From sequence record PP449093.1: 64,000 nt of DNA; one strand, given 5' to 3'. This document shows, in pieces, positions 39,027 through 47,405 of the stretch; positions within the stretch are counted from its first letter, which is position 1; every line of letters begins with the position of its first letter. A program made the position numbers and the translations under genes. The stretch comes from Escherichia coli phage phiS. Below the pieces are notes generated by a model that ran no database searches, was not told the DNA's origin, and was given only the letters and a program-made list of their open reading frames with translations.

Positions 39027-39389
39027 ATGCTAGGTCATTCTAAAATAGAAGATTGCTCATTCAGAGCAATGAAAGATGATTTTTCAGTCCTGTACGCGTC
39101 TATCCGAGAGTTGTTTGTAGATTTTAAGCAATTCAGAGAATACAAAGGCGTTAAGATGCGGGAGTGGGTATTCTGGCCTTTCTATATCATTACTCTGTTT
39201 TCTATGGTATTTTGTTTTGTCGGGATCACGATCGCTAGCTTTGTTACTTGCGCTTTCCTGATTATCCGGTGTATCATGTTTGCTTTGATTGCTGCCCCGT
39301 TTATTGTTTCAATCCTTCCGTTAAAATGGCTATTGGATTGGGCTGATAAATCTGATAAAGTAAAGAATGTGATTTGTAAGCGTGTATGA
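39027..39389 (+). CDS. Integral membrane protein (120 aa); possible ac counterpart by position
   Basis: Two or three hydrophobic helices (FYIITLFSMVFCFVGITIASFVTCAFLII, ALIAAPFIVSILPL); directly upstream of gene 52. Confidence 0.5.
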   Translation: MLGHSKIEDCSFRAMKDDFSVLYASIRELFVDFKQFREYKGVKMREWVFWPFYIITLFSMVFCFVGITIASFVTCAFLIIRCIMFALIAAPFIVSILPLKWLLDWADKSDKVKNVICKRV

Positions 39390-39396
39390 GGTGAAG

Positions 39397-40743
39397 ATGA
39401 ATAAATCAGTTACTTACCGTAGCCTTGAAAGCATTGTACATAATGAAGCTAAGGAATATGCGATCTATTCTGCCGAGGAACGCGGGATTCCTCAATTAGT
39501 TGATGGTCTTAAACCAGTGCAACGCTTTGTTATGGAATGTGCTTTGCAAAAGAGTAAAGGCGACCGTAAGAAATTCCGTAAGATGGCAGATATTGGATCT
39601 GGTGTTGCTGAGTTGGGTTATCACCACGGGGAAACTAATGCCGTAGAAGCCGGATCACTCATGGCGAATACATGGAGCAATAATACTCCACTGCTTGATG
39701 GTCAAGGTAACTTCGGATCGCGTTTAGTCCAGAAAGCAGGTGCGGCACGTTATATCTTTGCTCGTGTGCATGAAAACTTCTTTAAAATCTATAAAGATAT
39801 GAATTGCGCACCTAAGCACGAAGATCTGGAACACATCCCGCCAGCGTTCTACTTGCCAGTTGTTCCAATGGTATTGGCTAACGGTATTAGTGGTATTGCT
39901 ACAGGGTATAAAACTGACATTTTACCGCATTCACTGGAAAGCCTTATTGAATGCACAGAGCTAGCACTTGCCGGAAAACTGGATAAAGAACCTAGTGTTC
40001 AATTCCCGAAATTCACGGGTAAAGTTATCCCACGAGATGATCGCGATGGTGTGATTCTTGAGGGTACATATGAACTAAACGGCAAGACTAAACTGACAAT
40101 ATCAGAAGTTCCTTATAAGTTCGACCGTGAAGAATATGTAGCGGTACTGGATGCACTGGAAGAAAAAGATCTGATTGTCTCATATAATGACCGTTGCTCT
40201 AAGGACGGATTCAGATTTGAAGTAACACTGAAACGCGATTATTTCAAAAGCGAAGATGAATCCGCTCGACATGAGCAGATCATGAAGGATTTTAAACTAA
40301 CGCAGTTAGTAGCACAGAATATCGTAGTGGTTAATGAACGTGGTTTAGTCGAAGTATTCGAGAAAGCGAGCGATCTGATCCGTCGATTCGTCGAAATCCG
40401 CTTAGGCTATATAGACAAACGCATTGAATTGATGCAAGCGGAAACGCTAGAAGCATACAATTATGCAATGGCTAAAGCCGAATTTATCGACCGCGTAATT
40501 AAGGGCGAAATCGAGCTACAGGGCAAGAAAAAGGCCGAGGTAATGCAATCCATCAATGGACATGAAAAACTGCGTCCATACGCCGATAAGCTAGTTTCTA
40601 TGCCATTGTATAGCGTTACTCAAGAAGAGTATGAACGACTGGTCAAAGATGCCGATAAACATCATAGTGAATATGAGTATTGGACAAAGACGACCGCAAT
40701 GAAGGAATATAAGAAAGATCTTAAAGAACTTAAGAAGGGTTGA
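39397..40743 (+). CDS. 52: DNA topoisomerase II medium subunit gp52 (GyrA-like)
   Basis: DGLKPVQRF, GYHHGE, LLDGQGNFGSR and RYIFARV match T4 gp52 as I recall it. Confidence 0.9.
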   Translation: MNKSVTYRSLESIVHNEAKEYAIYSAEERGIPQLVDGLKPVQRFVMECALQKSKGDRKKFRKMADIGSGVAELGYHHGETNAVEAGSLMANTWSNNTPLLDGQGNFGSRLVQKAGAARYIFARVHENFFKIYKDMNCAPKHEDLEHIPPAFYLPVVPMVLANGISGIATGYKTDILPHSLESLIECTELALAGKLDKEPSVQFPKFTGKVIPRDDRDGVILEGTYELNGKTKLTISEVPYKFDREEYVAVLDALEEKDLIVSYNDRCSKDGFRFEVTLKRDYFKSEDESARHEQIMKDFKLTQLVAQNIVVVNERGLVEVFEKASDLIRRFVEIRLGYIDKRIELMQAETLEAYNYAMAKAEFIDRVIKGEIELQGKKKAEVMQSINGHEKLRPYADKLVSMPLYSVTQEEYERLVKDADKHHSEYEYWTKTTAMKEYKKDLKELKKG

Positions 40744-40949
40744 TTATGAAAGAATATCCAGAAGGCGGTTATATTGCATTTGTGTACAACAATAAAAAGA
40801 TTGTGCCAATGGTCGTTGAGACTATGGAAGAAGCCAACCGGATCACTATTGAATCTCTGAATAAGTTAGCAGAGATAACAAACACACCAGAACACAGAGC
40901 AACGATAGACTATTTGATGAAAGAATTTTTGGAGGGAAAGTATGACTGA
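40740..40949 (+). CDS. Hypothetical protein (69 aa)
   Basis: ORF from the track. Confidence 0.5.
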   Translation: MIMKEYPEGGYIAFVYNNKKIVPMVVETMEEANRITIESLNKLAEITNTPEHRATIDYLMKEFLEGKYD

Positions 40950-41337
40950 ACGACGCATTACTTCAAGTAATTTAGGCAATCATCATGCATGGATGGTTGA
41001 TCCAGACAAAAATCCTTATAAACTGTACGACACAACAATTCAACCGTGGGATACTGGCGTATGGAAAACATCACCGACAACAGCACCTATTATGACCGAT
41101 CCGAAACCGATTAGCCCGATGGCGGAACCAGTACAGATTAAGCCGTTACCATACCAGATAACGACGAATAGCATCGCCAACAAGCAAGAAAATGATATTG
41201 ATATGATCTACGAGATGATCAAACTTTGGCGTGATGTTTATCTTGGTGTTCTTTGCAACACAGATAAAAGTGCACATGCGGCAGCGGTACTTGCATCTCA
41301 TGCGGTAGACGAAGCCAAAAAGAAATTTAGTAAGTAA
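40942..41337 (+). CDS. Hypothetical protein (131 aa)
   Basis: ORF from the track. Confidence 0.5.
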   Translation: MTERRITSSNLGNHHAWMVDPDKNPYKLYDTTIQPWDTGVWKTSPTTAPIMTDPKPISPMAEPVQIKPLPYQITTNSIANKQENDIDMIYEMIKLWRDVYLGVLCNTDKSAHAAAVLASHAVDEAKKKFSK

Positions 41338-41346
41338 CTGATTATT

Positions 41347-41378
41347 AAGCCGATCCTTGTGGTCGGCTTTTTTATTTT
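41347..41378 (+). terminator. Intrinsic terminator
   Basis: aagccgatcc-ttgt-ggtcggctt followed by TTTTATTTT. Confidence 0.65.
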
Positions 41379-41387
41379 AAAAAGTTG

Positions 41388-41416
41388 TTGACTTACAGAA
41401 TCCAACATCGCATAAT
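41388..41416 (+). promoter_or_regulatory. Early promoter (TTGACT, 17 nt, CATAAT) with conserved CCCATACCAAACAAAAGGAGAATCA leader
   Basis: Leader shared with promoters at about 27639, 41921 and 42234. Confidence 0.5.
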
Positions 41417-41447
41417 ACACCCATACCAAACAAAAGGAGAATCAAAG

Positions 41448-41720
41448 ATGTGCAACGAAAACAGCAAAGTGTTGGCAATTGCAGATAAAGTAGGTTACTG
41501 GAAATGCTGGGATGATATGGAGAAATTAGGCGGTCGCTATCTCGATAACTTAGAGTTGCATTATTGCCAAGCGCGTAATGCAGAAGTTGCGGGAGTAGCA
41601 ATCGAAGATATTCCGTCTAAAGTCTTCGGATTCTCTAAAGATGATACTCTAGAGTATGTTTTTAAGGCTGTAATGGATCAAGCATGGGAAGACGCAGAGA
41701 CACGCGCTCTTGATTGGTGA
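41448..41720 (+). CDS. Hypothetical protein (90 aa)
   Basis: ATG after AAGGAGAA. Confidence 0.5.
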   Translation: MCNENSKVLAIADKVGYWKCWDDMEKLGGRYLDNLELHYCQARNAEVAGVAIEDIPSKVFGFSKDDTLEYVFKAVMDQAWEDAETRALDW

Positions 41721-41724
41721 TAAT

Positions 41725-41943
41725 ATGAACTGGTATAAAATTTGGAAAAATCAGGTGGAGGCTTATCTAGGGTATAAGCCCACCGACGAAGAATTACTCG
41801 ATGCAATGTACGAAGACGGACTAAATCCGAAAGTAGCCGCGCAAGAATACGCGGAATGGATGAAGGTCGAAAAGAACCTAGAGGCAACGAAAAATTTTCA
41901 CGAAAATAATAAAAAAGCAGTTGACGCCAAAGGTCATCGGTAG
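41725..41943 (+). CDS. Hypothetical protein (72 aa)
   Basis: ORF from the track with adjusted start. Confidence 0.45.
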   Translation: MNWYKIWKNQVEAYLGYKPTDEELLDAMYEDGLNPKVAAQEYAEWMKVEKNLEATKNFHENNKKAVDAKGHR

Positions 41944-41949
41944 TATTAT
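41921..41949 (+). promoter_or_regulatory. Early promoter (TTGACG, 17 nt, TATTAT) with CCCATACCGAAACGAA leader
   Basis: Lies inside the 3' end of the upstream ORF. Confidence 0.4.
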
Positions 41950-41983
41950 ACCCCCATACCGAAACGAAGTGGAGGAAATAAAA

Positions 41984-42226
41984 ATGGTTAAAGTTAATGT
42001 TATCGAAGTTGCACTGTACGACGCTGGAATCTTCCTGAATGAAAAAGAAGCTGCCGTCCTCGACGAACTGAAAACTGTTTTTGTTCCTGTAGTAGAAGAC
42101 GTAGAAGCAATCAAAATCGCTTCTCGTAAACTGTCCCGTGAAGCATTTGACATGATTGATCCGGTTTTCAAAGTTATGCACGAATGCGCGGTTATGATGA
42201 CCGAAGAAGAAGCGAAAAATTTCTAA
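41984..42226 (+). CDS. Hypothetical acidic protein (80 aa)
   Basis: ATG after GTGGAGGAA. Confidence 0.5.
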   Translation: MVKVNVIEVALYDAGIFLNEKEAAVLDELKTVFVPVVEDVEAIKIASRKLSREAFDMIDPVFKVMHECAVMMTEEEAKNF

Positions 42227-42233
42227 AAACCAG

Positions 42234-42262
42234 TTGACGTAAAGAAACGGGAGTAGTAAGAT
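42234..42262 (+). promoter_or_regulatory. Early promoter (TTGACG ... TAAGAT) containing hairpin gggagtagtaagatactccc
   Basis: The same 20-nt palindromic element recurs in the promoter at 42512. Confidence 0.4.
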
Positions 42263-42291
42263 ACTCCCATACCAAACGAAAGGAGAATCAC

Positions 42292-42504
42292 ATGAAATCT
42301 ATCGAGCAAGTAGTAACAGAGTTTATGAGCTACGAAGGAAACCGCATCTTTGGACGTTCTCAAGTTCGCGAGATCGTGGAAGAGGTCTCTGGAGAGTTTG
42401 CGGAATCTGGTCACGTTACCACGCAAGAACGTAAAGAAGAAGCAGTAAACCAGATCATGGCTATGCAGAAAATGCGTATTAATGCACGAGCGGGTAAAAA
42501 TTAA
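42292..42504 (+). CDS. Hypothetical protein (70 aa)
   Basis: ATG after AAGGAGAA. Confidence 0.5.
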   Translation: MKSIEQVVTEFMSYEGNRIFGRSQVREIVEEVSGEFAESGHVTTQERKEEAVNQIMAMQKMRINARAGKN

Positions 42505-42511
42505 AAAGTAG

Positions 42512-42540
42512 TTGACACCGGATTAAGGGAGTAGTAAGAT
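42512..42540 (+). promoter_or_regulatory. Early promoter (TTGACA ... TAAGAT) containing hairpin gggagtagtaagatactccc
   Basis: Duplicate of the element at 42249. Confidence 0.4.
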
Positions 42541-42573
42541 ACTCCCATCAAGAAAAACATTGAGGAATATATT

Positions 42574-43332
42574 ATGAAAAACATTATCGCTGCTATCGTT
42601 CTTTCTGCTACTGCTTTCGGTGCTAACGCTGCGTCCTTTGATTGCGCTAAAGCGACTACCAAATCAGAGAAGTTTATTTGTGCTAACGAGTCTATCTCCG
42701 CGCTGGATTCGAAACTTCATGAAGTATATGTTAAGGCTGTTAAGATTGATCCGTCTCTTAAACAAGAGCAACGCAACTGGAATAAAACTGTTCGTGATAC
42801 AATGATCAATATCGGGCAGATTCAGCCACTGGAGGCTGTATACAACGCTCAAATCCAAAACTTGATGAATGCATTACCTAAAGAAGAAACCGCGTCAGAA
42901 AGCGATTCAGAGACTTCTGTGAAGGTTGACGAAGAACAACCGAAACAGGAAGAAAAAGTGGTGGAAGAACCGAAGGTCGAAACTTTTACCTATCAATGCA
43001 CCGTTCGTTATGAGTGGAGTATGAAAGATGGAATTTCCACAAAAATTAAAGAAGCGCCACTGTATGCCAAATATGGAAATCAACCAGGAGATCTTAAAGT
43101 AACCATTAAAAATGGGAAGATGGTTGATTTTGTATACATTGATGAATACAACGTACACAAAGCAAACGTACAAGAAACCGTTATGACTAAAGGCGGGTTT
43201 TATAAGAATGTTGGCAAGAAAGATCTATATGAATACTCCGTTTTCGAACCAAACGACGGAACTATTCGATTTGAAAAACGTCATCCTACATTCGGTGGCG
43301 CAATTGATGTAGATCAATACGTTTGCAAGTAA
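42574..43332 (+). CDS. Secreted protein with DUF1311/LprI-like (lysozyme-inhibitor-type) N-terminal domain (252 aa)
   Basis: Signal peptide MKNIIAAIVLSATAFGANA, then SFDCAKATTKSEKFICANESISALDSKLHEVY, the DUF1311 signature as I recall it. Acidic linker and a C-terminal domain follow. Confidence 0.65.
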   Translation: MKNIIAAIVLSATAFGANAASFDCAKATTKSEKFICANESISALDSKLHEVYVKAVKIDPSLKQEQRNWNKTVRDTMINIGQIQPLEAVYNAQIQNLMNALPKEETASESDSETSVKVDEEQPKQEEKVVEEPKVETFTYQCTVRYEWSMKDGISTKIKEAPLYAKYGNQPGDLKVTIKNGKMVDFVYIDEYNVHKANVQETVMTKGGFYKNVGKKDLYEYSVFEPNDGTIRFEKRHPTFGGAIDVDQYVCK

Positions 43333-43343
43333 GAGGTTAAATT

Positions 43344-43631
43344 ATGCAATTCAATAACATGAAGATTACAAAAGATTGGTGGAAGGCGATGCAAGATACT
43401 CCAGAAACCAAATTAAGCGAGACAACAACCACGATACAAGTTGATTACGAAGATCCGAAAGACATATACAGGGAAATTTTAATCAGAGAGCTTATAAAAG
43501 CTGGTAATTATCAAACACCGGACGGTCTTATTGACATGATGGTTAAAGGTCTGTATAGTGGTAAAAATCCAGATGTTTTACCGTGGTACGAGGGATATTT
43601 TAAAACATATCGTGACCACAACCGAAAATAA
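43344..43631 (+). CDS. Hypothetical protein (95 aa)
   Basis: ORF from the track. Confidence 0.5.
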   Translation: MQFNNMKITKDWWKAMQDTPETKLSETTTTIQVDYEDPKDIYREILIRELIKAGNYQTPDGLIDMMVKGLYSGKNPDVLPWYEGYFKTYRDHNRK

Positions 43632-43654
43632 GTTGTTGACGTGAGGATTATATT

Positions 43655-43846
43655 ATGGTAATTTTTAATCGCGATGGTATCATAGTTCGGCAACATCCAT
43701 TCCTTGAATACTATCAGGTTGAACAATGGGGATATGGGGATTGCTCGCGATCATACGGTCAAAGCTGGGGATACCGTACAGTTTTTGAATCAACTAATAT
43801 TGACAAAGTACGACAGAAAGTTTTAGAACTTCTTAACGATAAGTGA
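43655..43846 (+). CDS. Hypothetical protein (63 aa)
   Basis: Preceded by TTGACG and a GAGGA RBS. Confidence 0.45.
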   Translation: MVIFNRDGIIVRQHPFLEYYQVEQWGYGDCSRSYGQSWGYRTVFESTNIDKVRQKVLELLNDK

Positions 43847-43856
43847 GGATTACATC

Positions 43857-44225
43857 ATGGAAATTCAAAACAATTACGAAAAATGTGTTATTATCAATGA
43901 TTTGCAACGTCAATTGCATCATTACGAAACCGATTATAAAACATCAACAAAAACCGGAAAGTTGAAAGTGTGGGAAGTCTGGTATAACCGAAACTATCTG
44001 GGAAGCATCCACAAACTTGATCGCAGTGATGTTTATACAATGCATGTGGGCGCTTGTGGTGAATCGGATGTAGCATTTAATTTCATGGAAGCACTTGCAT
44101 TCTATGTAGAATATCTGGTAGACTATATCGAGTTGGAAGAGGAAGTGGTAGAATTGCTTCCTCCACCGGAAGAAGCGCCGGAAGCAACGATCCTGAAAGC
44201 ATTAAAGAAAATCTTTGTTAAGTGA
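43857..44225 (+). CDS. Hypothetical protein (122 aa)
   Basis: ORF from the track; acidic C-terminus. Confidence 0.5.
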   Translation: MEIQNNYEKCVIINDLQRQLHHYETDYKTSTKTGKLKVWEVWYNRNYLGSIHKLDRSDVYTMHVGACGESDVAFNFMEALAFYVEYLVDYIELEEEVVELLPPPEEAPEATILKALKKIFVK

Positions 44226-44233
44226 GGTGAACT

Positions 44234-44566
44234 ATGAAAAATGTACTGATTGTGTGGGAACTGATTCCAGAAACTACTGAATTATACATGGTACAGGTTG
44301 ACAATAAAGAATTTGAAATTCTGAAACGCGTCAACTGCAAATATATTAACATTGATGACATGACCCCAGAAATGGACTATGTAAACTATGCTCTCATGCA
44401 GCCTAGTTGGATTATGGATGAAACTAAAGCAGACGCCGAATCACTGGGTGTACCGGAAGAAGTATTAGCGAAATGGCATCAATTCAAAGTTGAAATAAAA
44501 GAGGGTGAACCGTTTATTCCTAGCGGTATGATCGATGCGGTGATTGTAACAGGTTTTCATCTGTAA
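44234..44566 (+). CDS. Hypothetical protein (110 aa)
   Basis: ORF from the track. Confidence 0.5.
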   Translation: MKNVLIVWELIPETTELYMVQVDNKEFEILKRVNCKYINIDDMTPEMDYVNYALMQPSWIMDETKADAESLGVPEEVLAKWHQFKVEIKEGEPFIPSGMIDAVIVTGFHL

Positions 44567-44578
44567 GGACATTATACA

Positions 44579-44911
44579 ATGTTTAATTATGACAAATATG
44601 AATCATGGAAAGCAACCGAATTGAAAGAGGCAGCGCGGTTAATCACACCGCGTCTTTATCCGGTGTTGTTTAGCGCCGATAAAGTAACAAGGGAAGTAAA
44701 CGAGGCGCTATCGGTTTTAGGCTATCTGATCGATAAAGTAGAGAAAACATCGGTATTCACAAATAGCGTAGAATATACCAGATATCGAGTGTTTTTAGAT
44801 TCCTTGCTCGTTGTCATTAAGGCACTAAATGATCATAACTACACCATGAACATGACGAAAATAATCGACGAAGCAAGAATTATGACAGAGAATATTTTCG
44901 GTAAATTTTGA
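44579..44911 (+). CDS. Hypothetical protein (110 aa), paralog of 45026..45349
   Basis: C-terminus IDEARIMTENIFGKF is paralogous to VKDARKLAENVYGKF. Confidence 0.5.
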   Translation: MFNYDKYESWKATELKEAARLITPRLYPVLFSADKVTREVNEALSVLGYLIDKVEKTSVFTNSVEYTRYRVFLDSLLVVIKALNDHNYTMNMTKIIDEARIMTENIFGKF

Positions 44912-45025
44912 TTATGAAAGATGATGAATCATTGAAAATTGCACTGGTTATGCTATTACAAGGTATAGAATTAGCAAACCACGAAAAAATGTTGAAACAA
45001 CAGCGTGAAATTATGAGAGGTGATT

Positions 45026-45349
45026 ATGATCGAGTTTGAAATTGACAACTTTCACGAAAAAGCAGAAGACCTAACCAAAATTTTGATTAGTCGAGGTGCA
45101 TATAATACGAAAGATATTATAAAAGAAGTTAATGTAGCGATGGACGCGATCCGAAAGGAATTTAAACACATTTCAGCGATTGGAGAAAATGGTCATCTTG
45201 AAGATGTTGAGCTGGTAGCACTGCGACGCTATTACTTCTTTGTTGATTGTATCATTGATCTAGCTAAAAATTATAGTCATTACATGAAAGATATTGTAAA
45301 AGATGCACGTAAGCTGGCAGAGAATGTTTACGGGAAGTTTCCAGAATGA
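45026..45349 (+). CDS. Hypothetical protein (107 aa), paralog of 44579..44911
   Basis: As above; RBS GAGAGGTGA. Confidence 0.5.
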   Translation: MIEFEIDNFHEKAEDLTKILISRGAYNTKDIIKEVNVAMDAIRKEFKHISAIGENGHLEDVELVALRRYYFFVDCIIDLAKNYSHYMKDIVKDARKLAENVYGKFPE

Positions 45350-45594
45350 AATTAGAGCAAGCGATTGTATACTTTGAGATGGGCTATGATATTGCTCGTG
45401 TAGAGTGGGAAGATGGTGATTTTGTCCGATTGATTGATCTTCCAGAAACAGCTATTGCACTGGTCAAAGTAGAAAACGGCATACAACGAAATTACGCGTT
45501 CTCTGACGAAGACAAACAAGCAGATGACTGGTACGCTACATGTTTTCATCATACAGCGTCAAAATGTGATTCAGGGGCTTCTATGCGCCAATAA
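45346..45594 (+). CDS. Hypothetical protein (82 aa)
   Basis: ORF from the track. Confidence 0.5.
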   Translation: MKLEQAIVYFEMGYDIARVEWEDGDFVRLIDLPETAIALVKVENGIQRNYAFSDEDKQADDWYATCFHHTASKCDSGASMRQ

Positions 45595-45596
45595 AA

Positions 45597-45630
45597 AGAA
45601 GGGGAGGCCGAAAGGCTTCCCCTTTAAGTT
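45597..45630. terminator. Bidirectional terminator between convergent early (+) and late (-) transcription units
   Basis: aagggga-ggccgaaaggc-ttcccctt hairpin with flanking A/T runs. Confidence 0.55.
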
Positions 45631-46285
45631 ATCTAATCCTTCCGAGGATTCTGGCAGATTGATTGCAAAGAGTATCTAAATTCTCAATGTCAATATCCGG
45701 TTTATTCTTCCATGCAATGGAGATACTACCAGAATAGACATTATCGAGATTGAATATAGGACAAGAATACATAACCCCTATATCGATACTCTCTAATTTC
45801 TTTTCTCTTGATGGAATATACTGGAAATCTTTATCGGTAAAATAGGATTTACCTAAAAGATGTCTACGATATTCTTCACTCGTTTTATTGATAGGGAATC
45901 CGCCTAAATTTTTTTCATCGATTGTATGCGGTAGCTTTCCTTCATATGCCACCAAATCAACAAAATAGTTTAGGTTTTTCGGACGAAAACTAAAAACAGC
46001 AGAAAAATCGGCATCAGCCGACACATGAACTATCTGTAACTGCTCCTGTGCTGCATTATCAAAATTGCGGTCTTTCTCTACCTGGAGAACGTGAGCATAA
46101 GTCTCATAACGAGTCTCTTTATAAAGCGCAAATAACTCGTTTTTACTATAAACGACAAATGCTAATATAGACAACACGACGGCAGCAAAAACACGAAGTA
46201 CGAGCAACTCCGTGCTTTTAGTTGTGAAAATAGCGCGCAGGACATTTGAGATAGCAAAGTCTTTCCCTTTTTCAGAAACTTGCAT
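45629..46285 (-). CDS. t: Holin T
   Basis: 218 aa; LQIVHVSADADFSAVFSFRPKNLNYFVDLVAYEGKLP and CNQSARILGR match T4 holin T as I recall it. Confidence 0.9.
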   Translation of the reverse strand: MQVSEKGKDFAISNVLRAIFTTKSTELLVLRVFAAVVLSILAFVVYSKNELFALYKETRYETYAHVLQVEKDRNFDNAAQEQLQIVHVSADADFSAVFSFRPKNLNYFVDLVAYEGKLPHTIDEKNLGGFPINKTSEEYRRHLLGKSYFTDKDFQYIPSREKKLESIDIGVMYSCPIFNLDNVYSGSISIAWKNKPDIDIENLDTLCNQSARILGRIR

Positions 46286-46622: not shown

Positions 46623-47405
46623 CTAAACAGCCGGTCCGTAAATGGCTCCGCGATTTTGCCACGTTGGGGCAGACCCTATAACAGCATAACCGGCATCGCC
46701 GCCATTGTATTCATATCCTTGACCACGAATATTACATCTACCTCCTGCGGCGCCTACCTCACCACCGCTTCCGCCATTATAGACATCGTTCATGGACCCC
46801 GAACCAGGCGCATAAAGAGTACCAGCAGTTGCGCCTGATTGCATGTTGGCAGATCCACCAGCAGCACCAAACGGACGACCGCCGCCACCACCAAAAGTTA
46901 ATTTCATTGGTTTCGTAGGAGAATAATACCCACCACCTCCACCGCCACCGCCGCCAGCGATAGCACCGCCATTATTAATTCTTAGCCTCCCACCAATATC
47001 ATTTTGAATACAATGACCCCCAGCTGATCCAGGACTATTGCTACCGCCATTCCCTCCACGACCATACATCGTTACGCCATGTATATTCAACTGAACATAT
47101 TCATTCGGTGTATCTCCATACATAAAGAATAAAGGAACATCTTTAGAATATGATACTAAATCTCCAGTGATATTAAACACTATAGGTGTACTACCTGCCT
47201 CAAAGCATCTATCACGGAACCACTGACCATTGAAGTTATGGTCTGCTCCAAGTGTATGAATAATTTCTCGCGAGCGACCTGCAAATTGACTCATCCAGCA
47301 AGGAACACCCAATCTTAATTGACCAGCCGCTTGACTCATCCATCGTTGTCCTGTTTCATTTACGGATGAACTACCAATCCAACCAGGAACACCAACTACT
47401 GCCAT
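46623..47405 (-). CDS. 38: Receptor-recognising adhesin gp38 (T2-type, glycine-rich motifs)
   Basis: Poly-Gly segments [12 protein letters not shown] and [15 protein letters not shown] typical of T2-like gp38; follows gene 37. Confidence 0.8.

Follow-up and report, generated by a model that had tools for sequence, protein, structure and literature searches.

In bacteriophage T4 the interval between gene 52 and the holin gene t is occupied by motA.1, motA, arn.4 to arn.1, arn, asiA.1 and asiA, which raises the question of what a Krischvirus phage keeps at this position and how it expresses and maintains it. We examined this for Escherichia coli phage phiS in a 64,000-nucleotide stretch of sequence record PP449093.1 (hereinafter the window, whose positions are used throughout), which is of Krischvirus type. 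Here the interval from gene 52 to t is filled by 15 plus-strand open reading frames (ORFs; hereinafter designated O1 to O15). The whole 4.9-kb block is 98.1% DNA-identical to vB_EcoM_011D4 (hereinafter 011D4) and 96.5% to RB49, and it matches 58 phage records, every one a Krischvirus-type coliphage; in RB49 and phi1 it is annotated as ORF255 to ORF268 (including ORF256.1), all labelled "hypothetical protein". An earlier reading made from the letters alone (hereinafter the sequence-only reading) had described a dense cluster of about 14 small early ORFs with four internal promoters, and had taken it for an accessory region in which phage-specific host-takeover and anti-defence genes accumulate. 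We consider it highly probable that the block is the hyperplastic early region of Krischvirus, located at T4's motA-arn-asiA position and both transcribed from and shuffled between promoter cassettes of the PeSL type. This architecture is ordinary and already known, and the leads at the level of single genes are modest. Most gene functions in the block are unassigned, the best-supported ones being those of O15, O7 and O10; new here are the Tad2-like match of O15, the identity of the N-terminal part of O7 to an E. coli gene together with its hypervariable barrel, and the presence of O9 in rV5-like phages.

Promoter cassettes and proposed transcription units

The internal promoters lie at four sites of the type GTTGAC-17 nt-TAnnAT (41388, 41921, 42234 and 42512), each at or beside a gap that precedes a ribosome-binding site (RBS) and an ATG. 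The sequence-only reading was right to single out these four promoters but did not recognise them as known PeSL recombination cassettes, an identity that explains the architecture of the block. The cassettes (hereinafter P1 to P4) and the hairpins at the two ends of the cassette-driven part are the following.

41347-41369, plus strand: P1 terminator hairpin and T-run, from a terminator scan and RNA folding; annotated as a terminator in Makalu phages
41370-41447, plus strand: P1 cassette, with A-tract, GTTGAC, 17 nt, CATAAT and RBS; predicted to drive O3-O4
41903-41983, plus strand: P2 cassette, with A-tract, GTTGAC, 17 nt, TATTAT and RBS; overlaps the end of O4; predicted to drive O5
42216-42291, plus strand: P3 cassette, with GTTGAC, 17 nt, TAAGAT and a 7-bp stem over the -10 box; predicted to drive O6
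42494-42573, plus strand: P4 cassette, with the same 22-mer stem-loop as P3; predicted to drive O7-O15; an insertion hotspot
45598-45625, no strand assigned: GC-rich hairpin with a 12-bp stem and GAAA loop (dG -23.6 kcal/mol, z -4.6), between the convergent O15 and t

The four cassettes align in register over about 80 nt, in the order AAAAAnnnGTTGAC, CCCAT(A/C), RBS and ATG, and an AAAAA lying 3 nt upstream of GTTGAC is invariant in all of them. Their -35/-10 hexamers (TTGACT/CATAAT, TTGACG/TATTAT, TTGACG/TAAGAT and TTGACA/TAAGAT from P1 to P4) match the consensus at 9-10 of 12 positions across a uniform 17-nt spacer. P3 and P4 contain an identical 22-mer, GGGAGTAGTAAGATACTCCCAT, for which no occurrence is expected by chance and which folds as a 7-bp stem, GGGAGTA/TACTCCC, over the -10 box (z -1.8 and -2.3). 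The 9-bp hairpin at 41347-41369 would close the unit of gene 52, O1 and O2 and doubles as the stem-loop of P1. A simple form of the cassette pattern is found at 15 sites in the window, three of them within 600 bp in this block, with P1 just outside the pattern.

PeSLs (promoter-early stem-loops) have been described as strong sigma-70 promoters that follow an AT-rich tract, which contains or comes after the stop codon of the preceding gene, and that carry a stem-loop acting as terminator or attenuator; they cluster in hyperplastic regions, ahead of orphan ORFs. Reporter assays have revealed promoter and terminator activity for other PeSLs of RB49 and phi1 (PMC2839356, PMC4122927); gene shuffling by recombination between the cassettes has been proposed (Arbiol et al. 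2010, PMC2839356; Comeau et al. 2014, PMC4122927). Judged by sequence, the four internal promoters correspond to the PeSLs published for RB49 and phi1. They occur in the same genus and at the same locus (ORF255-268), stand upstream of orphan ORFs, coincide with insertions and deletions, and display the same order of A-tract, near-consensus -35 box, 17-nt spacer and -10 box followed by RBS and ATG, and three of the four have a stem-loop over the -10 box or upstream of the -35 box. The likeness is not complete, in that the stems here read GGGAGTA/TACTCCC whereas those of RB49 and phi1 are described with a pure G-run and C-run, and the cassette content differs from that of RB49 by the presence of O5 and the absence of ORF263 and ORF263.1.

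On this basis, host sigma-70 RNA polymerase would read rightward through gene 52, O1 and O2 to the terminator at 41347-41369, and transcription would restart at the four PeSL-type cassettes, three of them with a stem-loop, giving units of O3-O4, O5, O6 and finally a nine-ORF, translationally coupled O7-O15 operon. Junctions within O7-O15 (42574-45594) are gaps of 2-23 nt or overlaps, and no cassette-type promoter is found in this stretch downstream of P4, where a lone 11/12 consensus site occurs. That site, at 43531-43559 within O8 (TTGACA, 17 nt, TATAGT, no A-tract), is the best sigma-70 match of the region. The operon would end at the strong hairpin shared with the convergent holin gene; this hairpin (45598-45625), annotated as a terminator on both strands in Makalu_003, is likely a bidirectional terminator. 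The T4-type late-promoter motif TATAAATA is absent from both strands between 39000 and 46500, which argues for early-only expression.

Variation among relatives and coding content

A second role of the cassettes is proposed from a comparison of the block with its relatives. We compared eight phages in detail (RB49, FL15, kaaroe, Makalu_002, Makalu_003, AV108, SFHK24 and 011D4) and counted presence and absence by search across the 58 Krischvirus records. All left-half breakpoints of insertions and deletions in the eight relatives fall on cassettes or their edges. At P1 (41414-41450) Makalu_002, Makalu_003 and SFHK24 carry an extra 68-aa ORF; at 41868-41884 five phages carry an extra 66-aa ORF; between 41876 and 42233 the O5 cassette, a single gene bracketed by P2 and P3, is missing from RB49 and AV108; and at P4 (42494-42523) extra ORFs are found that include RB49 ORF263 and phi1 ORF263.1, the latter already reported as unique relative to RB49. 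Of the 58 records, 31 have O5, whereas RB49, phi1 and AV108 lack it. The approximately 80-nt cassettes would also act as substrates for homologous recombination, so that single genes lying between them would be gained, lost or exchanged.

The right half varies by alleles and not by cassettes: the two classes of O8 share about 45% identity, O14 exists in a second class of about 50% identity, and O12 is found in 48 of the 58 records. The outcome would be an array of cassettes in the left half and a right-half operon that is largely fixed in the genus except for allele swaps. All eight relatives possess about 10 of the 15 ORFs, at 82-100% identity and mostly above 94%; O9, O10, O11 and O15 are 98-100% conserved there, O10 and O15 occur in 58 of 58 records, and only O5, O8, O12-O14 and the C-terminal half of O7 are variable. 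In a 174.8-kb metagenomic Krischvirus contig (L018, 3761-4069), one 102-aa ORF, overlapping the end of the O7 homologue, replaces O8 and O9, so O9 is not universal in the genus.

The comparison across relatives that the sequence-only reading had proposed yields a graded picture. The block is an accessory, hyperplastic early region, as that reading held, and in O15 it offers a credible anti-defence candidate, but the genus-wide conservation just described means that it is not mostly phage-specific. That reading had also named, as signs against itself, conservation of most ORFs across relatives and matches to T4 genes of known function; the former is found and the latter are not, O10/arn.4 being the only T4 match. 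In principle the block adds nothing new as a further example of PeSL-mediated shuffling, which is now checked in eight relatives in detail and in 58 Krischvirus records instead of two.

Several observations weigh against the PeSL-based reading of the block. P2 pairs weakly (z -0.95) and, unlike the RB49/phi1 type, has no clear or convincing stem-loop; P3 and P4 have imperfect -10 boxes (TAAGAT); and a generic promoter scan finds 13 sites where 22.5 are expected from shuffled sequence, which is no enrichment, so that the argument for the promoters is the recurring cassette and not the match to a consensus. Promoter and terminator function of the cassettes is presumed from their sequence and from experiments on other PeSLs. 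The site at 43531 could be an internal promoter for O9-O15, the fifth of the block, or a chance match. Finally, the variable parts of the right half (O8, O12-O14 and the C-terminal domain of O7) have no flanking PeSLs, so that another recombination route must act there.

The ORFs of the block and the two genes that bound it are listed below, with identities referring to the eight relatives.

39382-40743, plus strand: gene 52, topoisomerase II medium subunit, the upstream boundary; RB49 annotation, and Pfam DNA_topoisoIV on the L018 homologue
40746-40949, plus strand: O1, 67 aa, RB49 ORF268; phrog_15105; 82-99% aa identity, in 8/8 relatives; weak RBS
40942-41337, plus strand: O2, 131 aa, ORF267, with a proline-rich N-terminal part; phrog_15644; 89-95% identity
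41448-41720, plus strand: O3, 90 aa, ORF266; phrog_7287; 96-99% identity; third-position bias
41725-41943, plus strand: O4, 72 aa, ORF265; phrog_8655 over residues 4-54
41984-42226, plus strand: O5, 80 aa; no PHROG match
42292-42504, plus strand: O6, 70 aa, ORF264; phrog_14966; 86-99% identity
42574-43332, plus strand: O7, 252 aa, ORF262, a mosaic gene; Pfam, AlphaFold model, fold searches and E. coli DNA match
43344-43631, plus strand: O8, 95 aa, ORF261; phrog_15915; two allele classes
43655-43846, plus strand: O9, 63 aa, ORF260; homologue in rV5-like Vequintavirus phages
43857-44225, plus strand: O10, 122 aa, ORF259; T4 Arn.4 homologue, Pfam Phage_T4_Y16F
44234-44566, plus strand: O11, 110 aa, ORF258; phrog_4658; 98-100% identity
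44579-44911, plus strand: O12, 110 aa, ORF257; paralogue of O14, phrog_9457
44914-45039, plus strand: O13, 41 aa, ORF256.1; phrog_17009; coding status doubtful
45026-45349, plus strand: O14, 107 aa, ORF256; paralogue of O12, phrog_9457; strong RBS
45346-45594, plus strand: O15, 82 aa, ORF255, Tad2-like (DUF2829); Pfam PF11195; start overlaps the O14 stop (ATGA)
45629-46285, minus strand: holin t, the convergent downstream boundary; Pfam Phage_holin_T, E 3e-60

Fourteen of these ORFs are well supported as genes and one, O13, is doubtful, so that the earlier count of about 14 was accurate. That much of the cluster might instead be non-coding, or a gene-calling artefact in an AT-rich spacer between core genes, is suggested by the shortness of all the ORFs, by the lack of a characterised homologue for any of them, and by O13, which shows neither a sign of purifying selection nor an RBS. 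Substitutions relative to the eight relatives, however, are strongly biased to third codon positions in 13 of the 15 ORFs (O13 shows no bias and O4 lies outside the test), and synonymous changes stand well above non-synonymous ones in O2, O3, O5, O7-O12, O14 and O15 (39 versus 6 in O11 and 26 versus 1 in O5). O1 and O6 evolve faster yet retain a third-position excess; O1, in which non-synonymous changes outnumber synonymous ones (78 versus 47), unlike in its neighbours, may be under relaxed or diversifying selection. An RBS precedes every ORF except O13, weakly so for O1, and most ORFs have a canonical, correctly spaced RBS, and most have a PHROG family of their own. Two ORFs have confident structure models (over the full chain or one domain; O15 and O7), and a purine excess throughout the block (positive GC and AT skew) favours plus-strand coding. 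We regard an artefactual origin of the cluster as barely conceivable. A search of NCBIfam returned nothing for any of the 15 ORFs, and a sequence search of the PDB with O11 gave no usable match.

Two ORFs call for qualification. The 41-aa peptide that the sequence-only reading had suggested as possible exists as an ORF, O13, whose frame is open in five of the eight relatives (36 aa in one) and which is absent from Makalu_002, Makalu_003 and AV108. Its coding status is doubtful because it lacks an RBS and any codon-position bias, has changed at 1 synonymous versus 15 non-synonymous sites, and is missing from several relatives. O4 is conserved in its first approximately 52 aa only, and its tail enters cassette P2; the last approximately 20 codons (41884-41943) vary among the relatives, with the 72-aa form common to 011D4 only, because the recombination breakpoint at 41868-41884 lies inside the gene.

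Comparison with the T4 motA-arn-asiA interval

The block resembles the T4 interval in its flanking genes, its direction and its convergence with t, and the two have one gene in common; in the number and content of their genes they are otherwise unrelated. The shared gene emerged from a direct comparison of O1-O15 with the nine T4 proteins encoded between gene 52 and t, which gave only a weak O10/arn.4 signal. A tblastn search of T4 then confirmed it, with an E value of 1.8e-6 and 29% identity in a 62-aa match that takes in arn.4 and its upstream extension. Pfam PF26821 (Phage_T4_Y16F) is recorded for the near-identical 122-aa gene in the O10 slot of two Krischvirus contigs, and the RB49 counterpart carries the note "12.8 kD protein in AsiA-MotA region". 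Going by these matches, O10 corresponds to T4 Arn.4 in sequence as well as in relative position.

The statement of the sequence-only reading that no member of the cluster matches motA, asiA, ndd or stp holds in every search that we made. No ORF of the block matches the Pfam families of MotA (PF09114 and PF09158) or AsiA (PF09010) at E<0.1; BLASTP and phmmer against the T4 asiA-motA block give nothing better than E about 0.03 in a nine-sequence database; no homologue of Arn, Arn.1-3, AsiA.1 or MotA.1 is found by Pfam, BLASTP/phmmer or tblastn; and tblastn against the T4 37-to-rIIB segment returns no ORF match to ndd or stp at E<0.1. For RB49, likewise, no motA or asiA orthologue and no middle-promoter consensus has been identified (PMC1524935).

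O12 and O14 are the tandem pair that the sequence-only reading had proposed as paralogues, and they are related over their full length (BLASTP E 9e-7, 32% identity), both hit phrog_9457, and they have in common the motifs EVN.A, RY..F.D and AR...EN.(Y/F)GKF. They also provide the most concrete form of an alternative in which the block functionally replaces the MotA/AsiA takeover of T4, with O12 and O14, for example, remodelling sigma-70 or RNA polymerase. The block does sit between gene 52 and t, with O12 and O14 in asiA's place; the two proteins are about 110 aa long against 90 aa for AsiA, and their only PDB profile matches are helical coiled-coil proteins. These features are outweighed by the absence of AsiA or MotA similarity in Pfam, BLASTP and phmmer, by the absence of a motA orthologue or middle-promoter consensus in RB49, and by the distribution of the pair itself, since a gene missing from 10 of 58 genomes (O12) or carried as alleles only 50% identical (O14) does not behave like an essential transcription factor. 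A remote homology of O12 and O14 to AsiA was likewise rejected (hhalign probability 0.9%). We judge the takeover alternative very improbable and retain the hyperplastic early region as the description of the block.

O15, O7 and O9

O15 passes the threshold of Pfam PF11195 (27.9 bits, cut-off 25; E 3.4e-6; profile positions 1-71 of 73), as do two distant members of its clade (26.1 and 25.5 bits). Its AlphaFold model (pLDDT 76.5) consists of a helix (3-11), four strands (14-19, 26-32, 36-43 and 46-50), a helix (54-58) and a last strand (63-67). When this model is compared with the PDB by Foldseek, ranks 1-8 are all Tad2 structures from SPO1 and Myroides (probability 1.00, TM 0.54-0.62), with E values of 6e-3 to 8e-2 for the Tad2 chains against 0.9 for the next match. 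Because the Pfam threshold is passed and the top eight Foldseek matches are all Tad2, we assign O15 to the Tad2 family and, as modelled, to its fold. The predicted topology is that published for Tad2, with helix 1, five antiparallel strands and a short helix before the last strand, and O15 is similar in size (82 aa versus 89 aa for Tad2 of Bacillus phage SPO1), differing in that it lacks the second helix of Tad2, between strands 2 and 3.

Proteins of the Tad2 family form tetramers that act as sponges for Thoeris signals, and some homologues also inhibit CBASS, Pycsar or Thoeris types II and IV. The ligand-contact residues of SPO1 Tad2 are W25, N26, W73, S76, T78 and D79. To judge from spacing and secondary structure, W21, Y50, S/T53 and D56, which are invariant in the O15 clade, could correspond to W25, W73, S76 and D79; on the same mapping E22 and E55 would stand in for N26 and T78, so that the contacts would be matched only in part. 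O15 is grouped with genes that are early by their predicted promoters, as expected for a sponge such as Tad2, and its strong purifying selection (63 synonymous versus 7 non-synonymous changes), genus-wide presence and predicted co-transcription with early genes fit a working sponge. By analogy with Tad2, O15 likely sequesters a nucleotide immune signal early in infection.

Three points count against this assignment. O15 is only 14-18% identical to the solved Tad2 proteins; PDB sequence and profile searches with O15, with a profile of its clade and with its relative from a Klebsiella phage gave no usable matches; and members of the Tad2 family differ in ligand. The O15 clade is tiny and isolated: an exhaustive search of 1.8 billion representative proteins yields 5 true hits, and three large proteins with repeats of fibronectin type III and similar kinds that it also returned were treated as repeat-inflated false positives. 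The Tad2-like gene is present in every Krischvirus and labelled hypothetical in every annotated record seen, and its conservation predicts that these therapy-relevant coliphages resist at least one nucleotide-signalling defence.

O7 is the most unusual item of the block. The sequence-only reading had called it a DUF1311 secreted protein, and this is borne out by a Pfam match to LprI/DUF1311 (PF07007; 24.8 bits, cut-off 22) and a signal peptide (MKNIIAAIVLSATAFGANA/AS, AxA type), which place it among the exported, helical, cysteine-bearing proteins of the LprI/DUF1311 type. The signal peptide is followed by the helical LprI/DUF1311 domain (about 24-100), a disordered, low-complexity acidic linker (104-132) and a barrel (135-251), and the AlphaFold model shows a four-helix DUF1311 domain and a confident 8-stranded beta-barrel flanked by Cys142 and Cys251. 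The two domains differ sharply in variability: among 17 homologues the median pairwise identity is 98% for the N-terminal domain versus 30% for the barrel, which falls into at least 8 allele classes with C142, G153 and C251 as its only invariant residues. In AV108 the exchanged segment is precisely the barrel, bounded by breakpoints near 42975 and 43314.

The 5' half of O7 (42568-42981) is 94-96% DNA-identical to a chromosomal gene annotated as "lysozyme inhibitor LprI family" in 27 of 5,426 complete E. coli genomes. This gene lies in a small island beside hicAB, yncJ and rlhA, and Pfam searches of its neighbours were uninformative; the loci compared include 6001-6795 in L011 and 5007-5777 in L013. 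Phage and E. coli sequences cease to be similar at the linker, and at the DNA level their C-terminal barrels are unrelated. One allele class occurs on both sides, however: another E. coli allele, the chromosomal P0025, is 80% identical to the phage allele P0026 from end to end.

O7 has in common with M. tuberculosis LprI, Salmonella ScwA and inferred orphan immunity proteins of type VI secretion systems (T6SS) a Sec signal peptide and a cysteine-containing helical DUF1311 domain, and with M. tuberculosis LprI also a small beta-barrel after that domain. Unlike LprI it is not a lipoprotein, having no lipobox cysteine, and its C-terminal domain is hypervariable; in further contrast to the LprI and ScwA systems, its gene is carried by a lytic phage and shared at about 95% DNA identity, in its 5' half, with an E. 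coli accessory island. A PDB sequence search with O7 gave no usable match, and the 8-stranded barrel, which may be of the MliC/PliC lysozyme-inhibitor type that forms the second domain of M. tuberculosis LprI, is not detectably MliC (PF09864). O7 is predicted to be exported to the periplasm, and its conserved DUF1311 domain and swappable barrel plausibly fit an envelope binding or inhibitor role. More specifically, O7 might be a periplasmic inhibitor of a peptidoglycan hydrolase, acting either as T4 Spackle does on the tail lysozyme of superinfecting phages or in the manner of T6SS immunity proteins, with the hypervariable barrel tracking variable targets. The LprI domain does appear as an inferred T6SS immunity gene; inhibitor activity of the domain itself is unproven in the literature. 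We hold this specific assignment to be unlikely. We give a rather low probability also to the idea that O7 represents an unrecognised family of polymorphic envelope proteins exchanged between lytic T4-like phages and the E. coli island beside hicAB. Should the partner bound by the barrel be variable, for instance the tail lysozyme or tip of an incoming phage or a secreted toxin, the phage and bacterial copies would be allele-specific exclusion or immunity factors.

O9 has a homologue in rV5-like Vequintavirus phages, to which it is 90% identical in amino acids and 82-85% in nucleotides in about 119 records (43643-43863 in the window, 1513-1704 in L010), and the likeness is confined to the ORF itself. 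In the rV5-like phages the gene has a complete sigma-70 promoter; in the window a bare GTTGAC (43635-43640) abuts the RBS, and by its sequence this remnant looks like a recombination scar. Together with the O7 mosaic, O9 points to single genes and domains moving between unrelated coliphages and the host chromosome, and genes that move in this way are good candidates for host-interaction functions.

Beyond the holin gene, the minus strand of the window encodes an adhesin of the T2/T6 gp38 type at 46623-47405 (Pfam GP38, E 2e-72, plus Gp38_N). In 011D4, the closest relative over the block, and in RB49, kaaroe and AV108, a long distal tail-fibre gene directly follows the dc5-like ORF instead; a swap of the host-range module thus adjoins the block.

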